In this document: piece after piece, positions 4,883-36,204 of the stretch
Position numbering within the stretch: position 1 is the first letter of the stretch
Layout of the letters: each line of letters starts with the position of its first letter
From: Gallionellaceae bacterium
GTDB lineage: Bacteria > Pseudomonadota > Gammaproteobacteria > Burkholderiales > Gallionellaceae
Length of the DNA stretch: 39,374 nt
Assembly: GCA_028713345.1 (NCBI GenBank)
Contig: JAQTOM010000002.1
Location: 1 to 39,374 of the forward strand
Direction: 5' to 3'
Made by a program: the position numbers and the translations under genes
Notes under the pieces: model-generated
Seen by the model: only the letters and a program-made list of their open reading frames with translations
Told to the model about the DNA's origin: nothing
The model's database searches: none

Positions 4883-6490
4883 CTAAATTTTCAGAGGTGC
4901 CCGTGTCTCTACTCCCAGCAATTGCAGGATGCGCGGCATATCCAGATGCGCTTCCAGCGTGTCGGCCAGGCGCTCCAGGTTCTGCTCGCGCAGGGCGTGG
5001 TAATCGAAGGCCTGCGGCGCCTGCAATCCGGCCCATTCCAGCAGCGCGCCGCAGGTCTGCGGTGACTCGAATACGCCGTGCAGGTAAGTCGCGATAATCT
5101 GTCCATCGGCGGAAATCGCGCCGTCGCTACGGCCATCGTCGAGTTGCGCGAAGGGGCGCTGCAAGGCGCTGCCCGCACTGATTCCGGCGTGGATTTCGTA
5201 GCCGCCCAGCGGCGCATCCGCCAGATGCAACCGCCCCTGCACGTTGTGCAATTGTTTGTGCGGCTGCAAGGTGGTGGCAAGATCCAGGTAGCCGAAACCC
5301 GCGCTGCCGCCCGGCGCGCCTTCGATGCCGTGCGGGTCGTGGATGGCCGTGCCGAGCATTTGCAGCCCGCCGCAGATGCCCATCAACTTGCCGCCATAAC
5401 GCAGATGCCGCGCCAGATAATTCCCCCAACCCTGCGCGCGCAGCCACTCCAGATCGGCGCGCACATTTTTGCTGCCGGGCAGGATGACCAGATCGGCATA
5501 ACCAGCGACTTGGCTGGCGTAGTTTGACTGCCTAGTCGAATGGCTAGTAGTTTCATCAGCGGGAATATTCTCGCCTAGGGCGACAAAATGGAATTCCACC
5601 TGTGGATGCAGGCGCAGCGGGTCGAAGTCGGTGTGGTTGCTGATGTGTGGGAGGGCGGGGACGACGATGCGCAACTTACCCTCTCCCCCAGCCCCTCTGA
5701 TGGAACTACTAGCCATTCGACTAGGCGGAAAATCCGCCAAGTCGCTGGTTATCCCGCAGGCGGGGAAGGGGAGAGAATCTTCCGCCTCCAGATGCAGGCC
5801 GTGCAAGTGCGGCAGCACGCCCAGCACCGGCTTGCCGGTATGCGCCTCCAGCCAGTCCAGGCCGGACTGCAACAGGGCGAGGTCGCCGCGAAAACGGTTG
5901 ATGATGAAGCCGCGCACACGCGCCTGCTCGCTCTCGCTCAACAGGGCCAGCGTGCCGACCAGATGGGCGAATACGCCGCCACGGTCGATGTCGGCCACCA
6001 GCAGCACCGGGCAATCCACCGCTTCGGCGAAGCCCATGTTGGCGATGTCGTTCGCGCGCAGGTTGATCTCGGCGGGTGAACCGGCGCCTTCCACCACGAT
6101 GATCTCGTATTGCGCCGCCAGACGCCGGTGCGAAGCCAGCACCGCCTCGCGTGCCACGTTCTTGTAGTCGTGATAGGCCGCAGCTTCCATGTTGCCGATG
6201 GCGCGCCCGTGGATGATGACCTGCGCGCCGGTATCGCTGTTGGGCTTGAGCAGCACGGGATTCATGTCGGTGTGCGCGGCCAGCCCAGCCGCCTGCGCCT
6301 GCACCGCCTGCGCGCGCCCGATTTCGCCGCCGTCCGCGGTGACCGCACTGTTGAGCGCCATGTTCTGCGGCTTGAACGGCGCTACACTCACGCCACGCCG
6401 TTTGAGCGCGCGGCACAGCCCCGCCGTGACGGTGCTCTTGCCCGCATCCGAAGTCGTGCCCTGGATCATCAAGGTGGTCGCTGCCTTCAC
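4883..6490 (-). CDS. cobQ: cobyric acid synthase (CobQ/CbiP), carrying two in-frame repeat-element insertions
   Basis: Motifs: [70 protein letters not shown]. At 535 aa it is about 45-50 aa longer than the roughly 485-490 aa I recall for the family. The excess maps to the repeat elements at 5498-5559 and 5679-5775. Confidence 0.93.
5498..5559. repeat. hairpin repeat element, copy A (inverted relative to copy B), inside the cobQ frame
   Basis: ATAACCAGCGACTTGGC-n15-GCCTAGTCGAATGGCTAGTAGTT-tCATCAG. It contains an internal stem CGACTTGGC/GCCTAGTCG. It is translated on the minus strand as ...[23 protein letters not shown].... Confidence 0.85.
5679..5775. repeat. composite palindromic element, copy B: inner element (5697-5752) nested between GC-rich outer arms, inside the cobQ frame
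   Basis: The reverse complement of 5704-5726 equals 5530-5552 exactly (23/23). The reverse complement of 5736-5752 equals 5498-5514 exactly (17/17). The outer arms CCCTCTCCCCCAGCCCCTC (5679-5697) and GGCGGGGAAGGGGAGAG (5759-5775) are imperfectly complementary. It is translated as ...[31 protein letters not shown].... Confidence 0.85.
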
Positions 6491-7467
6491 AAAATTTCAC
6501 CCAGGGCTGCGCGCAGCCTGCCCCAATCCGCTTCACTGCCGGGCAGGCCGAAACGCAGGCTATGCGGCTGCGCAAAGTAGCGCGTGAGTATGCCGCGCTG
6601 TGCCAATTGTCGATGGACGGCTGCGGCCTGCTTCGTTGGCGCCCATTGAAACAGCCCGCAACCCCCGGCGGGCGGCAATCCTGCTTCGCACAGCAATTGC
6701 GCGAGACGCACACCATCCTGCATCAGACGTTTGCGTGCTGCCGCCTGCCATGCACGGTCGCGCAGCGCGGCTTGCGCCACGAAGCGCGATGGGCCGGCCA
6801 CGCTCCACGGCCCCAATACAGCGTGCATGCGCGCCAGCAATTCGGTATGCGCCAGCACGAAGCCGATACGCGCCCCGGCCAGCCCGAAAAATTTTCCCAG
6901 CGAACGCAGCACGATCAAACCCGGCGGCATCTGCGGCTGTACGCAACTCGCCTGCGTGCTGGCTTCGATGAAAGCCTCGTCCACGACCAGCCAGCCGCCG
7001 CGTGCCGTCAGGCGCGCATGCCACTCGTGCAAATCTGCCGCAGAGAATAATGTGCCCGTAGGGTTGTTCGGCTGCATCAGCACCAGCACTTCGAGGCTGT
7101 CCACAGCGCCGGCAATTTCTTCTGCCGGCAACTGCACTACTTCGTGTCCGGTGCTGCGCCAGGCATGGCCGTGTTCGGTATAACCCGGATGCAGCACGCC
7201 CGCGCGGCAACGGTCGCGCAAGCGCGGTAGCAGTTGCAGCGCGGCTTGCGAGCCTGCCACGGGCAGCACATCGGGCGTGCCGTAATAAGCCGCCGCAGCT
7301 TCCATCAATCCGTCCTGCTCCTGCGGCAGGTGCGCCCAGGCATCCGGCGGAATCGGCGGCGGCTCGAAGGCTATCGGGTTGATGCCGGTGGACAGGTCCA
7401 GCCAATCCTCCAGCGCAATGCCGTAGCGCGCTGCGGCTGCGCGAGTCTGTCCGCCGTGTTCAAGCAT
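6487..7467 (-). CDS. cobD: L-threonine-O-3-phosphate decarboxylase (class-II aminotransferase fold)
   Basis: [48 protein letters not shown] (PLP-lysine region). The track ORF is extended upstream to 7620. The MLEHGG start overlaps the cbiB stop by 8 nt. The stop overlaps the cobQ ATG (ATGA). Confidence 0.87.
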
Positions 7468-8458
7468 GCAACCACGCTCCAACCAGCAAAAGCAGCAGCG
7501 CCCATAGCCACGCACCGCGTTGCACCAGCGCCGTGGCGCGCGCGATGTCCGGTGCAGACGGCGCATTGCCTGCGCCCAGTGCCGGGCGTTGCTCGCATAC
7601 GCCGTGGTAGTTTGCCGCACCGCCCAGCCTGACCACGAGGCTGCCCGCGCCGCTCGCCATCACCGGCCCGGCATTCGGGCTATCCCAGGCACGCGCCTGT
7701 TGCCGCCAGCAGTGCAAGGCGACAGCCGTATTGCCGAGCAGGGCATAGGTCAGCGCGGTGAGCCGCGCCGGAATGAAGTTCAGCGCATCGTCCAGCCGCG
7801 CCGCCGCCCAGCCGAAGCAGCGATAGCGCGGCGTGCGGTAGCCCCACATCGCGTCCAGCGTATTCGCCAGGCGATACAGCAATGCGCCGGGCGCACCCGC
7901 CAGCACAAACCAGAACAGCGCGCCGAACACTGCGTCGCAACCGTTTTCCAGCACCGACTCGACCCCTGCGCGCGCCACGTCCTGCTCTTGCATCGCGGTC
8001 GTGTCGCGGCTGACGATCTCGCCCACGCGCAGCCGCGCCAGCGCCAGATCATCGGCCTGCAAGGCTTGTCGGATGCGGCGTGCATGTTCATTCAGGCTTT
8101 GCAGGCCAAGGGCAAAATACAAAACCACTACGTTGATCCACGGGCGCAACACTGGCTGTTGCCACAGGAAAATGATCAGGCACAGAAACGGAGCAATGGC
8201 CAGCAGCCATGCCAGCACGCCGCGCAGGCGCCTTGTTGTCCTGATACGCCATTGCAGAAAGACGCTGTTGTAGGAGCGCAACTTGTTGCGCGATGTTTGT
8301 TGAGATCGCGCAACAAGTTGCGCTCCTACGGAGTTTAGATGCTGTTCCAGCCACGCCGCAAGATTTCCGAAGCCCACCAGCGGATGCCAGCGGCGCGGCT
8401 CGCCCAGCAGGCAGTCGAGCAGCAGCGCACACGCCATCATCAGTGCGGTGTTCAGCAT
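7460..8458 (-). CDS. cbiB: adenosylcobinamide-phosphate synthase CbiB, carrying an in-frame 60-nt palindromic insertion
   Basis: LLDCLLGEPRRWHPLVGFG, SRDT, ENGCDAVFGALFW, DAMWGYR, NAGPVMASGAG. The track start 8473 is a GTG. ATG 8458 is preceded by AAGGAA. Confidence 0.9.
   Translation of the reverse strand: MLNTALMMACALLLDCLLGEPRRWHPLVGFGNLAAWLEQHLNSVGAQLVARSQQTSRNKLRSYNSVFLQWRIRTTRRLRGVLAWLLAIAPFLCLIIFLWQQPVLRPWINVVVLYFALGLQSLNEHARRIRQALQADDLALARLRVGEIVSRDTTAMQEQDVARAGVESVLENGCDAVFGALFWFVLAGAPGALLYRLANTLDAMWGYRTPRYRCFGWAAARLDDALNFIPARLTALTYALLGNTAVALHCWRQQARAWDSPNAGPVMASGAGSLVVRLGGAANYHGVCEQRPALGAGNAPSAPDIARATALVQRGAWLWALLLLLVGAWLHA
8270..8329. repeat. REPIN-like element: two perfectly inverted 25-nt REP-type arms and a 10-nt spacer, exactly 60 nt, within the cbiB frame
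   Basis: GTAGGAGCGCAACTTGTTGCGCGAT (8270-8294) is the exact reverse complement of 8305-8329. Each arm contains its own mini-hairpin GCGCAAC-TT-GTTGCGC. It is translated on the minus strand as VGAQLVARSQQTSRNKLRSY. Confidence 0.9.
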
Positions 8459-8553
8459 GTTGTTTCCTTGCACATGGAAATATGGGGTTCGTACCCGGAC
8501 ACGGGGAATTCGGCGAGGAAAAATGTCATGACTGCCACAGCAGGGTGCAGTAA

Positions 8554-11889: not shown

Positions 11890-12054
11890 CGATATTTTCC
11901 TGAGTGAGTTCCAAAGCGACCCCGCTGGAACGTTCAATTACAGGAAATACCGCAGACAACAGGAAGGAAGTGCCAGCTAACCGGTACGGTCAACCAAACC
12001 GCCGTCCATGCGCCGCCCGCAGCATTTCCCGACCCGTGGAATCCTTGAAGGACT

Positions 12055-12230
12055 CCTGCACTCAAGGCCGATATACGGGCTCGCAAGACAAAACGCACCG
12101 CCTTCCCATGATTGCTCACAGTGGCATATTGATACGTCCACACTTGCTTACCGTTGCGGGGGCAGCACAGGTATTTCACCTGTTTCCCGTTTAACCGGAT
12201 AGCGCAAGCTATCCGGCACCTCAATGCGAC
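12055..12230 (-). promoter_or_regulatory. cobalamin (AdoCbl) riboswitch in the btuB leader
   Basis: The minus-strand read contains the conserved core: GGTGCC ... AAACGGGAAACAGGTGAAATACCTGTGCTGCCCCCGCAACGGTAAGC ... GCCACTG ... GGGAAGGC ... and a B12-box-like GAGCCCGTATATCGGCC (12066-12082). It lies about 170-340 nt upstream of the btuB ATG. Confidence 0.85.
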
Positions 12231-12441
12231 AAGAATTGTAACAAGACACTGGAAAATACGGAACAACAATTTCGCTGGCGCTAAAAACACTGTCCATTTG
12301 ATCCTGAATCTGACAGCCAAATCTGTTGTTGTGGTGCAATATTATGATTTTTAACAAAAATTAATTATGAACTAATTATCTTTGCCATGTTGTGCGCTAT
12401 GATCAATTTGCGCAACAATTCTGTGCCAAAAAGTATTCTGG

Positions 12442-33423: not shown

Positions 33424-36204
33424 ATGTTATTTGTCCAAAATAATGCATTTAAAGGTGGCAGCGTGCTGAAATTACTCATCAAAACGTTAGGATTTATTGC
33501 CTGTTTAACCTTGTCTGGCGTTGCTTGTGCCGTGGGTATGGGCGGCATTAACGTGATTTCCGCATTAGGTGAGCCCTTGAAAGCGGAGATTGAACTGGTC
33601 GCCGTTGGCAAGGCTGAAAAAAACAGCCTGTCCGCGCACCTGGCTTCGCCCGATGTATTCAAGGGTGCAGGCATAGACTTTCCCAGCGCGCTGCCCAAGT
33701 TAAAATTCCAGATTGATACGCGTGACAACGGTGACTTCTACCTTAAGATGACATCGGTGCAACCGGTGAATGAGCCGTTCGTCAGCTTGCTGGTGGAATT
33801 GAGCTGGTCTTCCGGCAGGCTGTTGCGCGAATACACTTTCCTGCTGGATCCTCCAGGTTATAGGCCGGAGCTGCCCAAGGCGGTGGAAGTACAGCCTGTC
33901 CCGAGTAAAGTTGAGGCGCAGGTTGAGCCAAGTACCGCAGCCCCGGTGCATACCACCGAGTTGCCGCGAACCGCCGCGCCGGTGACTGAAAAAATACCCG
34001 TTGCATCCACACCAGCTGTTGTCAGTGAACACGCCGAAAGCAGCAATGTCGCTATGGGTGTCATCAAGGTTAAACGCGGCGACACCTTGAGCAAAATAGC
34101 GAGAGAAGCCAAACCTTCTGAAATAAGTCTGGAACGTATGCTGGTCGCGTTGTATCGCGCCAACGCCGATGCATTTGACGGCAAAAACATGAACCGCCTG
34201 AAGACCGGCAAGATACTGCACATGCCCGAACAGTCCGATCTGGACAAGTTGGCGCAGGTGGATGCCGTGAAAGAAATTCGTGTGCAAGTTGCCGATTGGC
34301 ATGCCTATCGCCAGAAACTTGCAGCAGCCAGTACGGCTGTAACGGAACATGCTCCCAAGCAGGAAGCATCCGGCAAGATCAGTACTACCGTAGCCGAGAA
34401 AGCGCCTGCCGCAAAAGAACCTGCCAGGGAAGTGGTGAGGCTGTCCAAGGGTGAGGCTCCTGGTGACAAGGCCGGTGCAGGCGGAAATGCAAAATCCCTG
34501 CAGGAAAAAGCTCACGCAATGGAAGAAGAAGCCATTGCCAAGAAAAAGGCGCTCAAGGAAGGCAATGAGCGTATTGCACTGCTGGAAAAGAATGCCAAGG
34601 ATATGCAGCGCCTGATCGAGTTGAAGAGCAAGCCTGTAGCGCCGTCAGCCAAACCAGAACCTGCCAAGGTTGAGGCCAAGCCGCCAATGCCTGTTACAGT
34701 ATCATCTGTTGCCGCTACCGCGAGTGGCGTGGCGCCTGCCAGTGCGGTAAAGCCTGCCAAGCCTGCCGCCAAGCCAGTAGTGGCACCCAAGGTAGTCGCT
34801 CCCCCGCCTTCATTGCTGGATGAACCGCTCTATCTGGCGGGAGGCGCTGCTGCGCTGCTGGCTATGGGAGGTCTTGGTTTTGTGCTGGTTAAACGCAGAA
34901 GAGGCGGCAAGGCCAGCGATAAGAAATCGGGTGACAAGGAACCAAAGGAAGTAAAAGAAGATATGGGTAGCAAAACCAGCACCCGTATTTCTGCGCCGGT
35001 TGCATCCTCGCCGGAAACCGGTGATTTCACGCATGCCGCAGCAGCCACTACTAGCCAAATGCCGCCCGAGGATGTTGATCCGATCAGCGAAGCCGACCTG
35101 TTCCTGAACTTTGGGCGTGATGCACAAGCAGAAGATATCCTGAAAGATGCGCTGGAGAAGAATCCTGCAAATAATCAGGTCCGTCTCAAGTTGCTGTCCA
35201 TCTATGCGAACCGCAAGGATACCAAGCAGTTTTCCTCTATTGCGCGCCAGGTTCAGGATTCCGGAGATGCAGCGGCATGGGTACAAGCTGCTGAAATGGG
35301 TCGCGGCATGGAGCCTAACAACCCGATGTATGGAGGTGCGGGTGACGAGTCGACTGCACCAGTTATGGAGCAAGTAAAGAGCGAGCAACAACCTGCCGCT
35401 GGTTTGGATTTTGACTTGGGTTTTGTCGCGCCAGAGACAGCCGCAACGCCTGAAGGTGAGGGTACAGTGGCGCTTGCACCGTCATTGAATACCTCTGCTG
35501 CCGCACCGTTGGATTTTGATCTGGGTTTCTCTGCACCAGAAGCAGCGGCCATACCTGAAAATGAAGGCACTGTAATATCAAGTGCGCCACTGGGTGATGA
35601 ATTCATGGCCACGCCAGCAGCGGAGGCTTTGCAAGAAACCCAGATGGATTTTGACATAACATCCACACACCCATCATTGGCTGCCATTGAGCCAGGGCAG
35701 GATGCAGCAATAGATTTTGACGTGACAGCCTCGCGTCCATCTTTTGCCGCAACGGAGCCGGAACAGGCGGCAGCGGCAACACCAAACTTGGATGATTTGG
35801 TATTTGATATAACCTCTACCCATCCTTCATTGACGGCGGTAACGGAGGAAAATGCTGACTTCACTCCGTCGGGCAATGATGGTGCCATGGAATTCACGCT
35901 GGATTTTCCCACTGCCGACAAACCTGAGGCCGTTCCTGCGCAAGCTGCCGCCAAGGAGGCGAGCGGTGCTGACTTGGGTAGTATCAGCCTGAATTTTGAT
36001 GAGCCAGCCGCACCTGCTTCTGCTCCAGCGGCGGCTAAAGATGCGCATTGGCACGATATCGCCACCAAGCTTGACCTCGCCAAGGCCTACCAGGAAATGG
36101 GGGATAACGCCGGTGCGCGTGAAATTCTGGGAGAAGTGCAGGCCGAGGGCGATGAACAACAACGCGCTGCGGCTGATGCCATACTGCAACAACTGCTTGC
36201 TTAA
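33424..36204 (+). CDS. fimV: FimV/HubP-family polar landmark protein (LysM domain, TM, acidic repeats, C-terminal TPR-like motif)
   Basis: Signal peptide LKLLIKTLGFIACLTLSGVACA, N-terminal SALGEPLKAEIEL, LysM (VKRGDTLSKIARE...LVALYRANADAF), TM LAGGAAALLAMGGLGFVLV-KRRRGG, and C-terminal KLDLAKAYQEMGDNAGAREILGEV. It has the conserved position between asd and truA. An alternative GTG start is at 33463. Confidence 0.88.
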   Translation: MLFVQNNAFKGGSVLKLLIKTLGFIACLTLSGVACAVGMGGINVISALGEPLKAEIELVAVGKAEKNSLSAHLASPDVFKGAGIDFPSALPKLKFQIDTRDNGDFYLKMTSVQPVNEPFVSLLVELSWSSGRLLREYTFLLDPPGYRPELPKAVEVQPVPSKVEAQVEPSTAAPVHTTELPRTAAPVTEKIPVASTPAVVSEHAESSNVAMGVIKVKRGDTLSKIAREAKPSEISLERMLVALYRANADAFDGKNMNRLKTGKILHMPEQSDLDKLAQVDAVKEIRVQVADWHAYRQKLAAASTAVTEHAPKQEASGKISTTVAEKAPAAKEPAREVVRLSKGEAPGDKAGAGGNAKSLQEKAHAMEEEAIAKKKALKEGNERIALLEKNAKDMQRLIELKSKPVAPSAKPEPAKVEAKPPMPVTVSSVAATASGVAPASAVKPAKPAAKPVVAPKVVAPPPSLLDEPLYLAGGAAALLAMGGLGFVLVKRRRGGKASDKKSGDKEPKEVKEDMGSKTSTRISAPVASSPETGDFTHAAAATTSQMPPEDVDPISEADLFLNFGRDAQAEDILKDALEKNPANNQVRLKLLSIYANRKDTKQFSSIARQVQDSGDAAAWVQAAEMGRGMEPNNPMYGGAGDESTAPVMEQVKSEQQPAAGLDFDLGFVAPETAATPEGEGTVALAPSLNTSAAAPLDFDLGFSAPEAAAIPENEGTVISSAPLGDEFMATPAAEALQETQMDFDITSTHPSLAAIEPGQDAAIDFDVTASRPSFAATEPEQAAAATPNLDDLVFDITSTHPSLTAVTEENADFTPSGNDGAMEFTLDFPTADKPEAVPAQAAAKEASGADLGSISLNFDEPAAPASAPAAAKDAHWHDIATKLDLAKAYQEMGDNAGAREILGEVQAEGDEQQRAAADAILQQLLA
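35398..36010 (+). repeat. degenerate acidic tandem repeats inside fimV
   Basis: GLDFDLGFVAPETAATPEGEGTV pairs with LDFDLGFSAPEAAAIPENEGTV. MDFDITSTHPSLAAIEP, IDFDVTASRPSFAATEP and LVFDITSTHPSLTAV form a second set. Then MEFTLDFP and ISLNFDEP follow. Confidence 0.8.

Follow-up and report, generated by a model that had tools for sequence, protein, structure and literature searches.

A small palindromic DNA element with many dispersed copies resides twice, in frame, in the cobQ gene of a Gallionellaceae bacterium

The stretch of DNA analyzed here, 39,374 nt from a Gallionellaceae bacterium (GenBank assembly GCA_028713345.1, contig JAQTOM010000002.1, positions 1 to 39,374; referred to below as the window), carries a gene for cobyric acid synthase, cobQ/cbiP, that encodes 535 amino acids, whereas the modal length of its orthologues is 487 amino acids. 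Two copies of the same hairpin-forming sequence lie within the gene in opposite orientations. What are these sequences, how did they enter the gene, and how does the protein accommodate them? As set out below, the repeats very probably represent a small, non-autonomous, selfish palindromic DNA element that is dispersed in the Gallionellaceae and neighboring Nitrosomonadales. The features concerned, including a repetitive extragenic palindromic sequence (REP) that encloses one of the copies, are as follows; fetched genomic loci and CobQ homologues are cited by L and P numbers, respectively.

4883 to 6490, minus strand: cobQ/cbiP (cobyric acid synthase), an intact open reading frame (ORF) of 535 amino acids and the host of both inserts (ORF list, Pfam).
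5498 to 5559, plus strand, antisense to cobQ: copy A, the 60-nt element (covariance model, 85 bits; empty-site alignment).
5560 to 5696, minus strand: the CobQ coding segment between the copies, 40 amino acids of ordinary CobQ outside any element, aligning to all orthologues.
5697 to 5752, minus strand, with the element's forward strand being the cobQ coding strand: copy B, the short 54-nt variant (covariance model, 77 bits; alignment to L123).
5753 to 5775, minus strand: 5' arm (CTCTCCCCTTCCCCGCCTGCGGG) of the outer REP, an older REP-like palindrome that hosts copy B.
5679 to 5698, minus strand: 3' arm (AGAGGGGCTGGGGGAGAGGG) of the same outer REP (sequence, L123 alignment, fold).

Two inverted copies in one gene

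Read on the plus strand, copy A is ATAACCAGCGACTTGGC TGGCGTAGTTTGACT GCCTAGTCGAATGGCTAGTAGTT TCATCAG. The insert proper spans 5498-5557 (ATAACC...CATC) and is followed by AG; it codes for 20 amino acids, residues 312-331. Copy B, read on the minus strand from 5752 down to 5697, is ATAACCAGCGACTTGGC GGATTTTCC GCCTAGTCGAATGGCTAGTAGTT CCATCAG, with an insert proper of 54 nt (5752 down to 5699) that codes for 18 amino acids, residues 247-264. Both orientations are open in the cobQ frame. The copies share a 23-mer, at 5530-5552 (+) and 5704-5726 (−), and a 17-mer, at 5498-5514 (+) and 5736-5752 (−). Neither block occurs anywhere else in the window, even at three mismatches (chance matches expected from shuffles, 0.00 for the 23-mer and 0.10 for the 17-mer), and the two copies form the longest inverted repeat of the whole window. 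A covariance model of the family, described below, scored copies A and B at 85 and 77 bits and found no further copy in the window.

Folded as DNA, copy B reached −14.3 kcal/mol (z = −6.0) and copy A −10.6 kcal/mol (z = −2.8), the weaker fold of copy A being due to an apical stem degraded by two disrupting substitutions. The core of copy B lies between GCGGG and AGAGGGG of the outer REP, and the outer arms and copy B together make a 97-nt unit that folds at −27 kcal/mol. The initial annotation of this DNA had described two inverted, in-frame hairpin copies at 5498-5559 and 5697-5752, and it proved correct in every detail, with both exact blocks located and the encoded peptides matching. Its further statements that each copy can fold and that copy B is nested in GC-rich outer arms (minus strand, 5775-5753 and 5698-5679) were likewise borne out.

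We then placed the inserts on the protein. Pfam assigns residues 6-232 of CobQ to CbiA/AAA_26 and residues 274-477 to GATase_3, so that inserts A and B bracket the start of the latter, the glutamine amidotransferase domain, where the initial annotation had put them. Its explanation of the unusual length of 535 amino acids also holds: the 20 amino acids of copy A, the 18 of the copy B core, and ~11 from the outer REP account for the excess over the orthologue mode. Orthologue lengths run from ~485 to 535 amino acids, a spread that is due to such repeats. Because the residues invariant in the family are all present in the orthologue alignment, including the GICGG cysteine C373 and H471, there is no hint that this cobQ is a pseudogene. 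An AlphaFold model built on a 27-sequence alignment (mean predicted local distance difference test [pLDDT] score, 66.5) left residues 236-270 and 312-329 unstructured, with pLDDT values of <50, between confident strands, and these segments coincide with the two inserts; this check of loop placement, proposed at the outset, gave modest support. A search of the PDB for sequence homologues of CobQ found none. Judged from its sequence, CobQ with its inserts is probably still functional, the inserts being extra and probably disordered loops.

Filled and empty sites among CobQ orthologues

The nearest homologues of the window CobQ are 67 to 89% identical to it and come from Gallionella, Ferrigenium, Gallionellaceae, and Nitrosomonadales assemblies. 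The alignment of orthologues, another check proposed with the initial annotation, showed close relatives that lack one or both inserts. Insert A is common only to the window CobQ and P0003. Empty alleles of site A read ...CCACC|CGCCGCCGAC in L121 and ...CCCCC|CGCCGCCGAC in L123, and the filled site equals these empty sites plus exactly 60 nt (ATAACC...CATC, the forward strand of the element). One A at the junction is ambiguous between element and target, and there is no longer duplication.

Site B is the linker that joins the two CobQ domains, and its alleles are more varied. The linkers of P0007, P0015, P0018, and P0024 hold a GC-rich REP without the core, translated as SPACGRGAGGEG, and in L123 this REP is uninterrupted (...CCCGTTTACGGG|CGAGGGGCCGGGGGAGAGGG). 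P0004, P0005, P0090, P0092, and P0098 carry a 60-nt core variant at the position of copy B in the window, and P0008, P0009, and P0011 carry the 54-nt variant within another outer REP (PLPCRERVE in translation). On these alignments, the interdomain linker of CobQ is an insertion hot spot. Since copy B in the window is the 54-nt variant and the closest relatives hold the 60-nt variant, separate core events appear to have occurred there. The genome of P0012 (JAHFRA01) has an empty cobQ yet carries the element elsewhere (L063 and L120), so the empty gene does not reflect lack of the family in that genome. P0006, the closest relative, contains a different repeat-derived insert of ~40 amino acids near site A (…SPHPNPLPQAGEGANESL…; alignment columns 349-387), which marks the loop near site A as a recurrent permissive site for palindromic repeats.

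That both blocks are in frame and the gene looks intact might suggest ancestral coding sequence, with the blocks as lineage-specific CobQ loops and not inserted DNA. This explanation is refuted, and we leave it next to no probability: most orthologues lack the blocks, as the modal length of 487 amino acids reflects, and the same sequence occurs in at least 120 unrelated places and in unrelated genes. The perfect inverted arms of 23 and 17 bp, 129-221 nt apart, also raise the possibility of an invertible switch in which the copies flip the enclosed 137-bp segment. Inversion on either arm pair, however, creates a stop at codon 256 or 271 and truncates CobQ, and close relatives have a single copy. 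Arms of 23 and 17 bp do not exceed the length that homologous recombination usually requires. The initial annotation had noted no recombinase in the window, a point on which no dedicated recombinase search was made, and had judged inversion unlikely; we agree and consider such a switch vanishingly improbable.

How copy B arrived is less clear-cut. The initial annotation held that the same mobile hairpin landed twice in cobQ. This stands for the identity of the sequence, which is a dispersed repeat, and for copy A, which is an exact 60-nt insertion relative to L121 and L123; copy B may be no independent landing of a bare element, because an older REP is involved and arrival as a composite is possible. 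In the latter case, copy B would have come, or been gene converted, as the outer CCCTCTCCC...GGGAGAGGG REP plus core, and only copy A would be independent. Most occurrences of the 54-nt variant are within this REP, where its position and relative orientation never vary; the outer REP sits at the same linker position in orthologues; and unrelated genes have received, as a unit, a second composite of ~150 nt that has an apical-stem signature of its own (see below). On the other side, the REP-alone orthologue in L123 shows the REP to be preexisting at the site, and the close orthologues P0004 and P0005 hold the 60-nt variant in the same REP, which points to separate core events into a resident REP. 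Composite arrival is thus a real but lesser possibility. In the sequence of events that we propose for cobQ, a REP-type palindrome would first have settled in the interdomain linker; the core would then have entered that REP, or a composite replaced it, to give copy B; and, in a separate event, a bare core would have entered an amidotransferase-domain loop to give copy A, the apical stem of which would now be decaying.

The element family, its insertion sites, and its host genes

A search for the core blocks outside cobQ had also been suggested, and they are not unique to this gene. The exact 20-mer CCTAGTCGAATGGCTAGTAG was found in at least 120 8-kb blocks of a species-representative genome collection. 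Among the matches listed, almost all are labeled Gallionella, Sideroxydans, Ferrigenium, Gallionellaceae, Nitrosomonadales, or "beta proteobacterium," and a few are labeled Sulfuricella, Thiobacillus, Azonexus, or Nitrosospira; most of the matched assemblies are metagenome-assembled genomes, and the outlier taxa could be binning errors. In the first 100 loci (736 kb), the covariance model found 125 copies, of which ~22 are additional to the seed, and it gave 28 matches in the remaining loci. These counts suggest tens to roughly one hundred copies per genome, a rough extrapolation from loci picked for holding at least one copy. Searches of viral contigs and of plasmids for the element gave no match. 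A concatenated 43-amino-acid peptide query for host proteins returned no candidates, and a 33-amino-acid window peptide compared with 1.84 billion representatives returned P0121 as its single significant match, an uninformative result from a query too short for a database of that size. The window and five loci contain no match to the element in Rfam 15 at the gathering score, window positions 5400-5850 gave only chance-level matches at E values of up to 10, and strings of the element sequence were not found in the searchable literature, where only single 12-mers matched, on unrelated topics. The element is a new, previously undescribed family.

The alignment and covariance model were built on 113 distinct copies. 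The 60-nt core consists of ATAACCAGCGACTTGGC, a variable stem-loop, and then CCTAGTCGAATGGCTAGTAGTTnCATC, and the apical stem is shorter in a 54-nt variant. The aligned parts are an invariant 5' block (ATAACCAGCGACTTGG), the variable stem-loop, the invariant 20-mer, and a tail, TTnCATC. Together they form a single long hairpin that is imperfect, its fixed mismatches being a T·T pair, an A·C pair, and a G/AA internal loop. The consensus, taken as single-stranded DNA, has a folding energy of −16.4 kcal/mol, compared with −5.8 ± 1.8 for shuffles (z = −6). When pairs were counted on the alignment, 96% of cells proved to be paired, and the cells changed on both sides number 120, compared with 36 ± 4 in column shuffles and 6-38 with slid partners. 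All of the covariation in the alignment sits in five apical pairs, the basal blocks and 3' tail being nearly invariant. In diverged copies without the exact 20-mer, the basal stem also shows compensatory changes: GCGAC/GTCG to GCCAC/GTGG (L082 and L095), C-G to T-A (L061 and L095), and A-T to G-C (L120). Because the forward strand has many G·T pairs, as in 73 of 113 copies at the last apical pair, we take this to be the strand whose fold is preserved. The inserted unit measures 60 nt in 97 of 118 copies, 54 nt in 13, and another length in 8; both variant lengths are multiples of three.

The insertion sites of these copies share a simple junction. Of 118 copies, 114 have an A directly after ...CATC and 104 a G at the following position, and in 108 a G or C precedes ATAACC; no longer motif is visible. 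Direct repeats sought in the flanks of the 118 copies were not found, there being no duplication beyond the one ambiguous A. Many copies lie within other repeat families, in which their position and orientation are constant, namely the REP CCCTCTCCCGC..GCGGG|AGAGGGG, the repeat TTCGAC|AAGCTCAGGACGAACGG, GTTCCCAC...GTGGGAAC, and ATTCCCGC...GCGGGAAT. Flanks with perfect complementarity of at least 6 nt within 20 nt were found at 33% of sites, compared with 6.8% of random positions in the same loci and 14% of re-paired flanks. In L120 (298-417), one copy sits within the apical loop of another, diverged copy. A composite of ~150 nt, made of structured outer arms and a core with a CGAGYG apical stem, occurs in L066 (1020-1160), L016, L073, L065, L120, and others; it is in frame in unrelated genes identified by eye from the translated flanks (YhdH-like, QueE-like, and ABC ATPase), its translation includes a stretch of 38 amino acids, and its flanks are nonhomologous beyond ~60 nt. 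From these sequences, composites can spread as units. A group of copies sharing the flanks ctcccgcaa...taacgtgtcgc was considered as orthologous insertions in one gene and rejected, since the flanks beyond ~60 nt are unrelated; it is instead a larger composite repeat.

Residence in genes is frequent, and three of the six frames of the element are stop free, all three of which are used. The F0 frame encodes ITSDLAxVVxQPSRMASSxI, R0 encodes LMxLLAIRLGxQxTPAKSLVI, and R2 encodes a peptide of 20 amino acids. Counting a copy as genic when it lies in a stop-to-stop ORF of at least 200 codons with at least 40 codons on each side, we found 43 of the 125 seed copies to be genic, in frames F0 (26 copies), R2 (12), and R0 (5). 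A cruder gene call gave 47 of 123 copies, so that overall ~35-38% of sampled copies are intragenic. By eye, the R0 peptide appears more hydrophobic than those of F0 and R2; its scarcity would be in keeping with selection for loops able to accommodate hydrophilic inserts. Pfam analysis of nine host ORFs showed them to be real genes, the insert being flanked by domains on either side.

Pfam-tested hosts: an AcrB-family transporter, HrpA, Mfd, MutS (insert in domain III), and IleRS.
Further Pfam-tested hosts: an AddB-like nuclease, another CobQ, an FAD-linked oxidase, and NuoG.

These results agree with the suggestion in the initial annotation of a coding-tolerant class resembling the Rickettsia palindromic elements (RPEs).

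Could the copies instead be a host-functional motif, that is, a DNA or RNA site (a protein binding site or a structured RNA module) kept in situ by selection? The near invariance of the basal blocks and tail across several genera, together with the covarying apical stem, would fit such a motif, as would the good preservation of the core peptide in the otherwise hypervariable CobQ linker and the high identity of an orthologous cobQ copy in two lineages, detailed below. Copies show no bias relative to transcription, however: in spacers between codirectional genes, 19 are sense and 14 antisense; 11 lie in convergent and 9 in divergent spacers; and genic copies, in three open frames, number 25 on the same strand as the gene and 22 on the opposite strand. 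This lack of bias disfavors a terminator-like or stabilizer-like RNA role. The absence of an Rfam match, the nesting of copies in other repeats and in one another, and the existence of degraded copies (copy A of the window and low-scoring model matches) also speak against a host motif, and selection for transposition competence can explain the covariation. We therefore regard a host-functional motif as decidedly unlikely. Two specific candidates were rejected as well. A hammerhead ribozyme, considered because the reverse strand starts with CUGAUG, was dismissed by eye, the essential A9 base being variable and no GAAA or stem II layout fitting; an integron attC site, considered for the AAC...GTT ends and variable terminal structure, was dismissed because the conserved ends lie within every copy and there are no cassette arrays.

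Mobilization and relation to known elements

On the reading that we prefer, a selfish palindromic element, a trans-acting transposase or recombinase would recognize the conserved hairpin and tail and move or copy the element. Proliferation would be limited to copies with an intact hairpin and blocks, and since only such hairpin-competent copies would proliferate, the covariation would need no host function. Selection would purge most genic insertions, leaving survivors where the phase is stop free and the surface loop or linker is permissive.

Several observations weigh against this reading or limit it. The site A copies of the window and L122, at the identical position, are 93% identical (56/60), whereas the rest of the two cobQ genes is 82% identical and their third codon positions 66%; a neutral passenger as old as the split between the window and L122 would keep ~40 of 60 positions identical. 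This excess conservation points to repeated landing at the site, homogenization by gene conversion from other copies, or constraint on the sequence and so leaves, as a minority reading, a motif constrained in situ. The conservation of the 20-mer is partly ascertained, since it was the exact search key for all seed copies. The CobQ model is of only medium quality, with other regions weak too, so that its support for loop placement is modest. With local GC skew in the 8-kb block as the reference, a noisy proxy, copies are oriented 59 to 58, and this lack of bias leaves lagging-strand single-stranded DNA transposition of the IS200/IS605 type unsupported. A tblastn search of all loci with Escherichia coli RayT found RAYT homologues in L075 and L074 that are flanked by other REP types; the element flanks neither of them, lying 2.6-3.8 kb away, in a sample of ~0.9 Mb that leaves absence unproven. 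Finally, among the loci examined, no ORF is recurrently bracketed by inverted copies, and none of the ORFs that copies do bracket looks like a transposase.

Other searches for a mobilizing enzyme returned little. The copy clusters in L039, L056, L049, and L095 contain only housekeeping genes, and a full-length parent element sought by means of orphan left and right blocks yielded only diverged, truncated, or interrupted copies. The RAYT-like Y1 transposase genes have REPs of their own, namely GTAGGATGCGC... doublets and GTTCCCACGCTCCGCGTGGGAAC (L075, 4200-4300; L074, 4330-4530 and 5100-5200), which indicates several independent REP systems in these genomes. Only two DUF559 (Vsr-like endonuclease) genes occur in the ~0.9 Mb of loci (L060, 1480-1980; L039, 1280-1780). 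Both lie within ~130 nt of an element copy and between REP-like palindromes; the L060 cassette appears to have entered a host gene at its 5' end, with ~50 nt of host sequence imperfectly duplicated, and the L039 gene is frameshifted. DUF559 may represent a distinct, REP-associated selfish cassette, although the cases are too few to say more.

The placement of two inverted copies in one transcript has a predicted consequence, and here the long-range RNA pairing raised by the initial annotation was recovered in silico. In the cobQ mRNA (5480-5790), copy B is predicted to pair with copy A through perfect helices of 23 and 17 bp, and the region has a predicted fold of −147 kcal/mol, compared with −101 ± 6 for shuffles. 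A duplex of this kind might affect cobQ expression.

Three further features of the window were seen. A cobalamin riboswitch aptamer (RF00174, 108 bits) lies at 12049-12238 on the minus strand, upstream of the cob operon of the same strand, of which cobQ is part. A second cob gene with a palindrome, the CbiB/CobD ORF at 7460-8473, holds a perfect GTAG-type REP doublet at 8270-8329 on the minus strand. This doublet consists of GTAGGAGCGCAACTTGTTGCGCGAT, a 10-nt spacer, and the reverse complement; it is exactly 60 nt long, in frame, and translated as VGAQLVARSQQTSRNKLRSY, and it belongs to a different family from the cobQ element, with no copy among the fetched loci. At 35393-35573, a 76-nt unit occurs in two diverged direct copies that are 71% identical and 105 nt apart.

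How does the element compare with known systems? RPEs, reportedly described by Ogata et al. in 2000, are like it in being small palindromic selfish repeats with a high in-frame fraction in unrelated housekeeping genes, several open frames coding for a conserved peptide, and insertions seemingly compatible with fold and function. The element shares their in-frame insertion in functional protein genes through several open frames. RPEs, however, measure ~100-150 bp and occur in Rickettsia (Alphaproteobacteria), whereas the element measures 60 or 54 nt, occurs in the Gallionellaceae and Nitrosomonadales (Betaproteobacteria), and is habitually nested in other REPs; the comparison made here is one of features. 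RPEs, summarized in PMC10969869, are the classic case of high-frequency insertion within genes (PMC10969869).

With the REP/REPIN sequences (RAYT associated; GTAG or CGTC tagged; PMC3733652), the element shares short imperfect hairpins, many dispersed copies, and the lack of target duplication. Intragenic REPs are on record, notably in genes of replication and repair (PMC3733652), and the hosts of the element include MutS, Mfd, HrpA, and an AddB-like protein. The element is longer (60 nt, compared with 20-40 nt for REPs), and it lacks the 5' GTAG tag: GTAG occurs only at alignment columns 51-54, 3' of the hairpin on the G·T-wobble strand, and the other strand has CTAC on the 5' side of the hairpin, so that the canonical GTAG arrangement is reversed (PMC3733652). 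It does not flank the RAYT homologues in the loci sampled, as a REPtron would, and with over a third of its copies in genes it is not predominantly extragenic.

Bacterial MITEs (miniature transposable elements with inverted repeats), such as Correia/NEMIS, ERIC, Nezha, and Coxiella QMITE (PMC5896051, PMC10969869), are likewise non-autonomous, structured, and dispersed and occasionally give in-frame gene fusions. The element differs in having no target-site duplication of >1 nt, in being shorter than typical MITEs, and in having no discrete terminal inverted repeats beyond its hairpin arms. These arms are imperfect inverted repeats, and among the orphan blocks there was neither a longer element with the same ends nor a parent insertion sequence.

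Among transposons, the IS200/IS605 type acts on single-stranded DNA and has PATE derivatives, and IS1397/ISKpn1 and the IS110/IS1111 family target REPs. The proposed hairpin-dependent recognition and the lack of target duplication recall IS200/IS605, and preferred insertion in other palindromic repeats recalls IS1397 and the IS1111 type. The element has one hairpin, however, whereas IS200/IS605 transposons have separate left-end and right-end hairpins, and it encodes nothing. In place of the tetra- or pentanucleotide 5' target of PATEs, positions −1 to −5 are only G/C enriched, with no fixed motif, and the replication-strand bias of PATEs is absent by the noisy GC-skew proxy given above.

A more novel interpretation would see in the copies a new class of mobile DNA rather than one more REP family, a hairpin-targeting element with exact integration without target duplication, an A/AG junction, and entry into palindromes, the copies of which are possibly constrained or coding adapted, with an mRNA duplex possible in cobQ. 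Lengths in multiples of three, two stop-free frames that are hydrophilic by eye, and conservation of orthologous copies above that of synonymous sites can be cited toward constraint or coding adaptation. We consider this interpretation unlikely. The element is best filed among the small non-autonomous palindromic repeats capable of in-frame residence: it acts like an RPE and looks broadly like a REP.

The combination of strict blocks, a covarying apical stem, no target duplication, and a preference for palindromes suggests an uncharacterized mobilization system. The element could serve as a high-resolution strain-typing marker for Gallionellaceae metagenomes. It also inflates and diversifies protein loops and linkers, which matters for annotation and phylogenetics. 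Frequent in-frame residence of a small selfish palindrome in essential genes, usually shown with the RPEs of Rickettsia, extends here to free-living iron oxidizers of environmental importance among the Betaproteobacteria.

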